NCBI GenBank assembly: GCA_964016885.1
Contig: OZ024742.1
Span: 279,124,001-279,188,000, forward strand
Origin: Eledone cirrhosa
Taxonomy: Eukaryota
DNA: 64,000 bases
Reading direction: 5' to 3'
Under the pieces are notes generated by a model. The model did not search any database, was not told where the DNA came from, and worked only from the letters and a program-made list of their open reading frames with translations. Both the position numbers and the translations under genes were made by a program. Below, in pieces: positions 24,206 through 27,475 of the stretch (positions are counted from its first letter, which is position 1; the number at the start of each line of letters is the position of its first letter).

Positions 24206-24918
24206 GAAATATATATATATATTTACAACAAAGACATTTGCAGATAAGGATGGACAGACAAAATGACTTTCTTCTCTGAAGTATCACGTATGTGAAAATT
24301 TACTTTTCTTCCCCTCTCTATATATTTTTTTGTTTTTATCATTATTGTCACTATTTGTATAAATATGCAAATTAACAATATTCTGCATATCCACAATTGA
24401 TAGTGCATTTAATGCTGAAACCGGTATTTTAAATAATTTAATGCTTTGAAATTTCACTAAAAATATCTCTTCGACATTTCCTCCAGAAAAAAATATTTTT
24501 CCTTTCTACTATTTGTTTATATATATATATATATATATATATATATATATATATATATATATATATATATATATATATATATGTGTGTGTGTATATATAT
24601 ATATATATATATATATATATATATATATATATATATATATATATATATATATATATATATATATATATATATATATATATTTATATATATATAAACAATT
24701 AAGTTAAAAGTGTACATCTATATATGTATACTGAAATACTAGTATGCATATAAATACACACATGTATACATATGTACATGTACTGAGTTTTTCACTTGAC
24801 ACTTTACTGTGAGTGTCCAGCTAGTCTGTATGTAACCAAACAGACAAACCGGGTTTCAGAGTCATACGGGTTTTCAAGGAAACACATTTCCTCTATTCTC
24901 CAGAGAGCCAGACAGGAA

Positions 24919-24959
24919 TATTGGACTAGTTTCGATGTTATTACATCTCATCAGCAATA
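24919..24959 (-). ncRNA. Minimal type I hammerhead (array copy 1)
   Basis: TATTG-CTGATGA-GATGT aata ACATC-GAAA-CTAG-TC-CAATA. Confidence 0.9.
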
Positions 24960-25388
24960 ATAACCCATCTTCCGGCTTCTCTAGAGAATCGTAAAAGCAC
25001 ATATCGTTATATGCTTTTTCTATGAAAATTAGTAGTGGGCAGACTAATTTGCATAGAACGTGAGTCATTGTGCGCACCAGTTCAGCGGAAACGATAAAAA
25101 CAAATAAAGAAACGAAATTAAATTTCGTTTCGCTTCTAACTCACTTTTCTATGACTGACGCTTAAACAATTAATTGAAAGTGTACATCTACATATGTATA
25201 CTGAAATACTAGTATGCATATAAATACACACATGTATACATATGTACATGCACTGAGTTTTTCCCTGGACACTTTACTGTGAGTGTCCAGCTAGTCTGTA
25301 TGTAACCAAACAGACAAACCGGGTTTTAGAGTCATACGGGTTTTCAAGGAAACACATTTCCTCTATTCTCCAGAGAGCCAGACAGGAA

Positions 25389-25429
25389 TATTGGACTAGT
25401 TTCGATGTTATTACATCTCATCAGCAATA
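25389..25429 (-). ncRNA. Minimal type I hammerhead (array copy 2)
   Basis: Identical motif to 24919-24959. Confidence 0.9.
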
Positions 25430-25859
25430 ATAACCCATCTTCCGGCTTCTCTAAAGAATCGTAAAAGCACATATCGTTATATGCTTTTTCTATGAAAATT
25501 AGTAGTGGGCAGACTAATTTGCATGGAACGTGAGTCATTGTACGCACCGGTTCAGCGGAAACGATAAAAACAAATAACGAAACGAAATTAAATTTCGTTT
25601 CGCTTCTAACTCACTTTTGTATGACTGACGCTTAAACAATTAAGTTAAAAGTGTACATCTACATATGTATACTGAAATACTAGTATGCATATAAATACAC
25701 ACATGTATACATATGTACATGTACTGAGTTTTTCACTGGACACTTTACTGTGAGTGTCCAGCTAGTCTGTATGTAACCAAACAGACAAACCGGGTTTTAG
25801 AGTCATACGGGTTTTCAAGGAAACACATTTCCTCTATTCTCCAGAGAGCCAGACAGGAA

Positions 25860-25900
25860 TATTGGACTAGTTTCGATGTTATTACATCTCATCAGCAATA
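25860..25900 (-). ncRNA. Minimal type I hammerhead (array copy 3)
   Basis: Identical motif. Confidence 0.9.
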
Positions 25901-26588
25901 ATAACCCATCTTCCGGCTTCTCTAGAGAATCGTAAAAGCACATATCGTTATATGATTTTTTCTATGAAAATTAGTCGTGGGCAGACTAATTTGCATAGAA
26001 CGTGAGTCATTGTACGCACCGGTTCAGCGGAAACGATAAAAACAAATAACGAAACGAAATTAAATTTCGTTTCGCTTCTAACTCACTTTTGTATGACTGA
26101 CGCTTAAACAATTAAGTTAAAAGTGATGAGATGTAATAACATCGAAACTAGTCCAATATTCCTGTCTGGCTCTCTGGAGAATAGAGGAAATGTGTTTCCT
26201 TGAAAACCCGTATGACTCTAAAACCCGGTTTGTCTGTTTGGTTACATACAGACTAGCTGGACACTCACAGTAAAGTGTCCAGTGAAAAACTCAGTACGTG
26301 TACATATGTATACATGTGTGTATTTATATGCATACTAGTATTTCAGTATACATATGTAGATGTACACTTTTAACTTAATTGTTTAAGCGTCAGTCATACA
26401 AAAGTGAGTTAGAAGCGAAACGAAATTTAATTTCGTTTCGTTATTTGTTTTTATCGTTTCCGCTGAACCGGTGCGTACAATGACTCACGTTCTATGCAAA
26501 TTAGTTTGCCCACTACTAATTTTCATAGAAAAAGCATATAACGATATGTGCTTTTACGATTCTCTAGAGAAGCCGGAAGATGGGTTAT

Positions 26589-26629
26589 TATTGCTGATGA
26601 GATGTAATAACATCGAAACTAGTCCAATA
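26589..26629 (+). ncRNA. Minimal type I hammerhead (inverted arm); 5'-truncated copy at 26124-26158
   Basis: Identical motif on the plus strand. Confidence 0.9.
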
Positions 26630-27475
26630 TTCCTGTCTGGCTCTCTGGAGAATAGAGGAAATGTGTTTCCTTGAAAACCCGTATGACTCTAAAACCCGGT
26701 TTGTCTGTTTGGTTACATACAGACTAGCTGGACACTCACAGTAAAGTGTCCAGTGAAAAACTCAGTACATGTACATATGTATACATGTGTGTATTTATAT
26801 GCATACTAGTATTTCAGTATACATATGTAGATGTACACTTTTAACTTAATTGTTTAAGCGTCAGTCATACAAAAGTGAGTTAGAAGCGAAACGAAATTTA
26901 ATTTCGTTTCGTTATTTGTTTTTATATATATATATATATATATATATATATATATATATATATATATATACACATATATATATATTTACACACACATATA
27001 TATATATATATGTATGTATATATATATACATATATATATATATATATATGCATATATATATATATATGTATATACATACTTATGTATGTATGGTTGTGTG
27101 TGCGTGGTTGTGACTGTGCGGGCGTGTGTGTATGAGTGTCTTTGTCTGTATGTGTATTTAAATGTGTATTCGTGTGCATATTTAAAATTTTTAATATTTT
27201 GCAATGAGGTTCATGTGAAATCCTTAGTTTATACAGATATTGCAATTTATCGGAAGTGCTATGCTACCATAAACACACATGTACTAGTTGATGTTTCATT
27301 TCGGTTTTCTTATTACTTAAGCAACGCCGTATCGGGCTCCATATAAAGTACAAATAAAGGACCAATATAAAGTCCCAATAACAAAGTGGGGTCACTATTA
27401 TCGACTTTACACCTCCCAAAATTGGATGGTATTGTACCTAAATTATAATAGAAATCATTATTAGTCATGTAACTA

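Follow-up and report, generated by a model that had tools for sequence, protein, structure and literature searches.

How does a short non-coding hammerhead repeat come to stand as two tandem arms, joined head-to-head and flanked by (TA)n, in the genome of Eledone cirrhosa? The question is raised by one locus in a stretch of 64,000 nucleotides of contig OZ024742.1 (hereafter the window, numbered from its first letter), which an earlier note, made from the sequence alone, had assigned to the non-LTR retrozymes while treating its inversion as an unusual event. Metazoan non-LTR retrozymes have units of 150–450 bp according to PMC7229834, or of 51–972 bp according to a 2026 preprint (10.64898/2026.07.22.740005). 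That an enzyme of a Penelope-like element (PLE) copies retrozyme circles into tandem DNA has been proposed but not shown (PMC7229834; PMC7761336), and in the 2026 preprint (10.64898/2026.07.22.740005) the link to PLEs rests on co-occurrence and pseudo-LTR similarity. PLE insertions themselves comprise an inverted 5'-truncated copy and a tail of 30–40 bp, often one-ended, in (TA)n targets (PMC8557442), and the same source describes the origin of inverted copies with a one-ended tail as open. A purified PLE protein, predicted to be a dimer, has been reported to cleave the two target strands and to extend them from a pair of internal start sites, by which the tail is defined (PMC11167929). From the arm ends and sequence variants of the whole family we propose, with a probability of about 0.7, that a PLE enzyme nicked both (TA)n strands and, from each nick, reverse-transcribed a predicted RNA circle of 470 nt.

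Materials and methods

The window lies in an assembly of 3.0 Gb. Unit positions are counted from the hammerhead cleavage site, window position 26154 being unit position 1. Arms were mapped in two sets of loci. Set 1 took the best-scoring loci of a search with one unit, which biases it to long, young copies, together with the loci of a 42-nt pattern; a less biased set comprised 35 regions in coordinate order from the first 100 of 1,699 matches to a 27-nt pattern across the cleavage site, plus five others. Variants were compared in 80 short loci, 52 of which have positions covered by at least three units; unit positions 428–437, arm edges and long arrays were excluded.

Results

The locus is a two-arm array with a repeat period of 470/471 (470 bp for the minus arm in Tandem Repeats Finder). 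Arm A, on the minus strand (24692–26125; 1,434 bp), holds 3.04 units and in RNA sense runs from unit position 212 across three junctions to a 3' end at fixed site A (unit position 232); arm B, on the plus strand (26124–26925; 802 bp), holds 1.70 units, from unit position 442 to fixed site B (unit position 301). The near-identical units that had been read from the sequence, three on the minus and about 1.7 on the plus strand, are thus borne out, with 97–99% identity between units. In self-comparison of the window the plus arm is an inversion 98–99% identical to the minus arm, the inverted pair spans 802 bp at 98.8% identity, and a single unit holds 8 of the 17 differences found at the locus, an unevenness that counts against our explanation. 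The arms meet at 26124–26125 in a 2-nt TG microhomology common to both. Their RNA-sense 3' ends adjoin (TA)n, as the earlier note had seen and arm mapping confirmed: the left target flank at 24518–24691 is (TA)n, and the right one, at 26926–27078, is (TA)n-rich and follows the 3'-terminal segment of the plus arm (26856–26925; compare PMC8557442, PMC11167929). The 2-kb windows containing the array have a GC content of 0.33–0.34, below the 50% that bounds retrozymes, and the unit is non-coding, its longest stop-free frame being 88 codons.

Intact CTGATGA...GAAA...GTC motifs start at 25895, 25424 and 24954 on the minus strand (cores 25865–25895, 25394–25424 and 24924–24954) and at 26594 on the plus strand. 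The last belongs to a type I hammerhead at 26572–26642, with predicted cleavage after GUC at 26624 and, by fold prediction, a helix II of 5 bp, a palindromic ACUAGU helix III and an extended helix I. A fifth copy, at 26124–26153 on the plus strand, is cut short at the junction, where C3 has been lost together with the 5' strand of helix I, and is predicted to be inactive. The description of a perfect minimal hammerhead in each unit therefore holds for the four intact motifs, but not for the fifth, nor is the motif strictly minimal: the strict minimal form lacks helix III and loop 3 and has a long helix II after a bulged base and a short helix I (PMC4209133), whereas here helix III is palindromic, the 5-bp helix II has no bulge and helix I is extended. 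By that definition the motif is a type I hammerhead of the canonical metazoan form, its helix III being weak and palindromic; this form requires a dimer (PMC4209133), and the axolotl retrozyme hammerhead has the same weak helix III (PMC7229834). The junction had likewise been placed inside the CTGATGA core, which is correct for the plus arm, starting at unit position 442, but not for the minus arm, which stops at 212.

Judging from the positions of these motifs, only a minus-strand transcript might release monomers, its three intact hammerheads giving two predicted products from cleavage site to cleavage site, of 471 nt (25394–25864) and 470 nt (24924–25393); the plus arm has a single intact hammerhead. 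Transcription across the 802-bp inverted pair might also yield a duplex. The circular unit folds at −160.5 kcal/mol, compared with −97.7 ± 5.9 for 100 shuffles (z = −10.6), and the array sequence has no match in Rfam at gathering scores. Each unit also contains one copy of the octamer ATGCAAAT (26494–26501 on the plus strand; 25047, 25517 and 25989 on the minus strand), which is conserved in 272 of 291 copies and lies within the longest run that is invariant between families. Such an octamer is a component of snRNA-type promoters, and the one here may be an internal promoter element of the unit.

Of 911 candidates in a search with a single unit, 36 were scored and yielded 167 matches, while the 27-nt pattern spanning the cleavage site is matched exactly at 1,699 places in the genome; the 45 matches to the 42-nt pattern were dropped as a copy number because known copies were missed. 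The retrozyme identity proposed for the window locus accordingly stands. The array belongs to a dispersed multicopy family of short non-coding hammerhead tandem repeats (the 1,699 matches), with target duplications of about 12–13 bp, above the 4 bp by which retrozymes are recognised, and this family is a young one, new to the metazoan non-LTR retrozymes. Unit length is constant in arrays of 2 to about 139 units, and the hammerhead core is intact in 135 of 147 family units. Two loci (L105 and L110) represent a subfamily at 87–89% identity, in which the cleavage site reads GUU, not GUC, and helix II shows compensatory changes. A sister family, with a 420-nt unit and GUA at the cleavage site, is about 60% identical and collinear around the whole circle. 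The core and palindromic helix III are invariant between families, and compensatory change is seen at 17 of the 84 pairs predicted, in a comparison of only about three lineages. Covariation across families involves hammerhead helices I and II and one long-range helix, which points to selection on the RNA fold, albeit from few lineages. Tandem relatives of the unit are also present in two sequencing runs labelled as other organisms (X4 and X5).

The longest array, on C1 (L106-L066, G000:C1:95.62-95.69 Mb), covers 65 kb with about 139 units, keeps the A/B head-to-head frame and is organised in higher-order blocks. These blocks rule out a single rolling-circle product, and the block-wise variants indicate later growth by duplication; the array is a satellite growing from one insertion. 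In a 13-unit array on C3, variants are mostly singletons.

Arm 3' ends fall at two fixed sites about 70 nt apart, A at unit positions ~222–233 and B at ~296–301, in 145 of 153 cases (82/87 in set 1 and 63/66 in the less biased set). Copies are thus not circularly permuted, a prospect that the earlier note had raised. The 5' ends, by contrast with this fixity, are spread evenly over the unit (152 ends; chi-square p = 0.48), in keeping with a retrozyme that has no LTR organisation. Unit positions 441–447 hold 3 of the 152, with 2.3 expected, so the core is not enriched, and a special role for the position of the window junction in the hammerhead core finds no support. Unit positions 1–25 do hold slightly more ends than the 8.1 expected (14/152, p = 0.03), a result from one window out of four tested with which some linear, cleaved templates would be compatible; positions 1–5 hold 1 of the 152.

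The mapped loci of the family contain 61 head-to-head junctions, nearly all at their own distinct position, with overlaps mostly of 1–6 nt and a few of 14–34 nt. Setting aside seven with a broken or interrupted arm and one duplicate leaves 53, and 52 of these pair an A end with a B end (29 and the 65-kb array from set 1, 22 from the less biased set). None is B/B, and the sole A/A locus (L076) has its second end outside TA and may be truncated. In the sister family, sites A' and B' lie at homologous positions and are paired in 12 of 16 junctions, the other four having a broken arm. Target duplications measure about 12–13 bp at L008, L075, L158 and L185 (non-TA or mixed targets), and exact duplications at L160 and L175 are 9 and 16 bp. 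The mapped loci show the inverted 5'-truncated arm and the AT-rich or microsatellite target of PLE dependants. This pattern of A and B ends is the 'tail at one end' signature of PLEs, present also in the RT/GIY-YIG PLEs of this genome and in the sister family. Head-to-head joining being the standard form of PLE insertion, the inversion is routine for the family, contrary to the first reading of it, and the window locus is an ordinary, young member.

The nature of the template can be approached through the variants. Across the variant set, 380 non-majority alleles are common to every unit of a locus (26 private to one locus), 283 sites vary in just one unit and only 13 are partly shared. Five of the latter belong to L020 and two to L170, both with alternating units, a pattern that would be expected from a two-unit circular template; one unit type of L020 has deletions and a change in the hammerhead core. 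Of 46 polymorphic sites compared in 46 loci, 1.1% differ between the two arms of a locus and 31% between loci, and a private allele occurs on both arms in 10 of 49 two-arm loci. The length of the cleavage junction is changed in none of 382 cases; such seamless junctions, together with the lack of a 5'-end pile-up at position 1, argue against end-to-end jumps on a linear monomer. Variants that are either locus-fixed or confined to single units, on arms of one haplotype, favour rolling-circle copying of a one-unit circle from both nicked strands. The earlier proposal, that a unit-length template was reverse-transcribed in rolling-circle-like fashion, thus gains support from variant sharing, from 382/382 seamless junctions and from the finding that no copy in the mapped loci is joined to a PLE ORF. 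Four all-but-one sites and six partly shared sites outside L020 and L170 are unexplained by a single circle, and haplotype sharing fits one RNA molecule or many identical RNAs of one source unit equally well.

Could the template used by a PLE instead have been a long multimeric RNA, linear and transcribed from an existing array, with no circle involved? PLE proteins initiate internally on unprocessed RNA (PMC11167929), long source arrays exist, as the 65 kb on C1 attest, and the 5'-end excess just past the cleavage site points the same way. Arrays nevertheless carry unit-specific variants (the 283 single-unit sites and the blocks of the 65-kb array), from which mosaic daughters would be expected, yet haplotypes and private alleles are locus-fixed on both arms. 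Nor are the 5' ends of B arms clustered beside site A, unlike L1-type twin priming on one linear RNA. We therefore regard a linear multimer as unlikely.

The inversion itself might have been produced by fold-back or self-priming on the first cDNA, which has been proposed for head-to-head PLE copies (PMC3846280), would account for the shared haplotypes and could make use of the few junction overlaps of 14–34 nt. However, arm lengths are uncorrelated (rho 0.09) and incompatible with fold-back in either direction in 8 of 29 loci, and matching ends would be expected in place of strict A/B pairing. A rearrangement after insertion would not give fixed outer ends on both sides together with a target duplication. 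We consider an origin of either kind very improbable, and favour reverse transcription from two nicks.

The genome is rich in GIY-YIG elements (10,596 candidates), with RT and C-terminal GIY-YIG frames, among them an RT + GIY-YIG PLE with a 938-codon open frame (L081). In three PLE families two clear ends can be recognised, 66 nt apart in one, the family of L081, and about 40–50 nt apart in two, and the copies at L086, L094, L093 and L157 have a head-to-head layout in which a short end is paired with a long one. Comparison by blastn and with a unit profile covered 50 of the 150 GIY-YIG loci listed (10,596 candidates in all) and found no PLE of similar sequence; apart from low-complexity sequence, the only matches were retrozyme insertions lying separately in adjacent (TA)n, and the partner PLE is therefore deduced from the arm ends alone. 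The unit and one PLE ORF end have a 15-mer in common, but on opposite strands, and we regard it as coincidental. A degenerate hammerhead-like motif, with a UUGAAAA or UUGAUAA core and a palindromic ACCGGU helix III, occurs 70–200 nt upstream of the PLE ends at L081, L087, L095, L099 and L100.

These searches bear on the idea that the units are truncated pseudo-LTR ends of an unsampled autonomous PLE in tandem-plus-inverted form, the ends, tail, target and inversion being the same as in PLEs. Such ends would sit poorly with the constant unit length in arrays of 2 to about 139 units, with a sister family only ~60% identical yet collinear over the entire circle, and with a longest stop-free frame of 88 codons. 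Moreover, no family arm continues 5' into an ORF-bearing element at the mapped loci, the 35 coordinate-order regions and the 5' flanks of single arms included, which leaves this idea with little probability. At C1:26.55-26.56 Mb, two same-strand hammerheads 4.6 kb apart belong to two separate insertions, and no ORF is listed in the interval. Finally, an assembly artefact from palindromic chimeric reads is most improbable: although four runs gave no independent record across the junction (short contigs and reduced-representation reads with many differences from the window, which are no evidence either way), read chimeras are mirror-symmetric, whereas these arms join unit position 212 to 442, end at different sites and have their own variants and unique flanks, and 61 such junctions exist, nearly all at their own position.

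In the left flank of the array, a motif at 24418–24517 also occurs in the end region of one PLE family, and the array may therefore adjoin an older PLE end, in its (TA)n. Hammerhead-like motifs of different families lie in the window at 13622, 17483, 22203 and 23902 (plus strand), at 42018 (minus strand) and at 47369 (minus) and 47463 (plus), mostly in short elements beside (TA)n, and inverted pairs between TA tracts at 23780–23980 and 47120–47660 are probably PLE ends. Broken RT-like frames with (TA)n interruptions at 44220–45495 (minus strand) resemble by eye the PLE frames of L139, L140 and L160; two pieces of them had no match in Pfam. Three LINE-type elements, recognised by eye in the open reading frame list from endonuclease- and RT-like frames, occupy 519–3797, 5611–7719 and 51944–55423. 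Elsewhere in the genome two chimeras were observed, both B/B and possibly secondary insertions: at L072:2760-4250 the array family is joined in sense to the sister family by a short microhomology, and at L122:1419-2150 a sister arm stands head-to-head with a PLE end.

Discussion

The components of our proposal differ in strength. That the insertion was PLE-driven we hold with high confidence, and a circular template is likely; whether one RNA molecule templated both arms is an even bet. By analogy with known retrozymes, multimeric transcripts would cleave themselves, probably in the form of double hammerheads joined by the palindromic helix III, and the monomers would be ligated to circles. 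Two results count against our proposal: Xenopus retrozyme dimers were uncleaved in vitro in 8 of 9 cases (10.64898/2026.07.22.740005), and PLE insertion in vitro is independent of hammerhead cleavage (PMC11167929). A PLE RT/GIY-YIG protein, probably a dimer, would then bind the structured region around unit positions 230–310 and cut the target with a stagger of 12–13 nt, as suggested by the duplications and by PMC11167929. The 3' end of one nick would prime at A and that of the other at B, which is how we interpret the 52/53 pairing, and each RT would travel the circle for a variable distance, often for more than one turn, to judge from the variant pattern. Joining of the two cDNA ends through a few bases of microhomology would leave the head-to-head junction, and ordinary tandem duplication may later expand some arrays.

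We tentatively go one step further and suggest that a PLE dimer on one retrozyme circle may carry out two simultaneous rolling-circle reverse transcriptions, each subunit with its own start site (A or B) and target strand. Were this true, it would explain the long-noted one-ended tail and head-to-head copies of PLEs, and it would identify PLEs, by mechanism, as the carriers of animal retrozymes. The family, perhaps self-transcribed via its conserved octamer, would then also be a compact substrate for work in vitro.

The family provides insertion-level evidence both on the copying of retrozymes by PLEs and on inverted copies with a one-ended tail. Its two contributions are the 52/53 rule, which ties start site to side, and a variant pattern pointing to a one-unit template; base-precise predictions follow for the existing in vitro PLE assay. 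We found no report of paired fixed start sites for retrozymes in the part of the literature searched, on which supplements such as Fig. S9 of PMC7229834 and the preprint tables may bear. The text examined of PMC7229834 and of the 2026 preprint (10.64898/2026.07.22.740005) makes no mention of fixed start sites, of one-ended tails or of head-to-head pairing, and the term 'inverted' is absent from the former and confined to the reference list in the latter.

Compared with the metazoan non-LTR retrozymes of coral, mussel and axolotl (PMC7229834), the unit, at 470 nt, exceeds the 150–450 bp given there but falls within the 51–972 bp of the 2026 preprint, and its RNA is a predicted one. Retrozymes seem to be promoterless (PMC7761336), while newt satellite 2 has an internal snRNA-type promoter (cited in PMC2220036); like that satellite, our unit is a hammerhead tandem repeat, here with a conserved octamer as a putative promoter only. 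The endonuclease-positive PLEs (Penelope/Poseidon, Neptune and Naiad; PMC8557442, PMC11167929, PMC3846280) differ in having an ORF, in forming partial tandems where the family forms constant-length multimers, and in sequence, none of those at the 50 GIY-YIG loci being similar. The family tail is also longer, ~70 nt against the 30–40 bp quoted for PLEs (PMC8557442), although one PLE family of this genome has 66 nt. Chlamys elements such as MRC1 are likewise non-autonomous PLE dependants, often in multicopy head-to-tail insertions (PMC8557442), but they share the 3' sequence of their partner and mostly lack canonical hammerheads, whereas the present family has a hammerhead and no detected similarity to a partner.

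In L1 twin priming, two target strands prime cDNA and give a head-to-head inversion with microhomology at the junction. The arms described here are likewise head-to-head with junction microhomology, yet each is primed from a fixed site and poly(A) is absent; in 11 of 29 loci the two arms are each longer than one unit, and the B arm does not stop beside site A. The value of the family lies in a family-wide rule that connects retrozyme circles with the two-site mechanism of PLEs.
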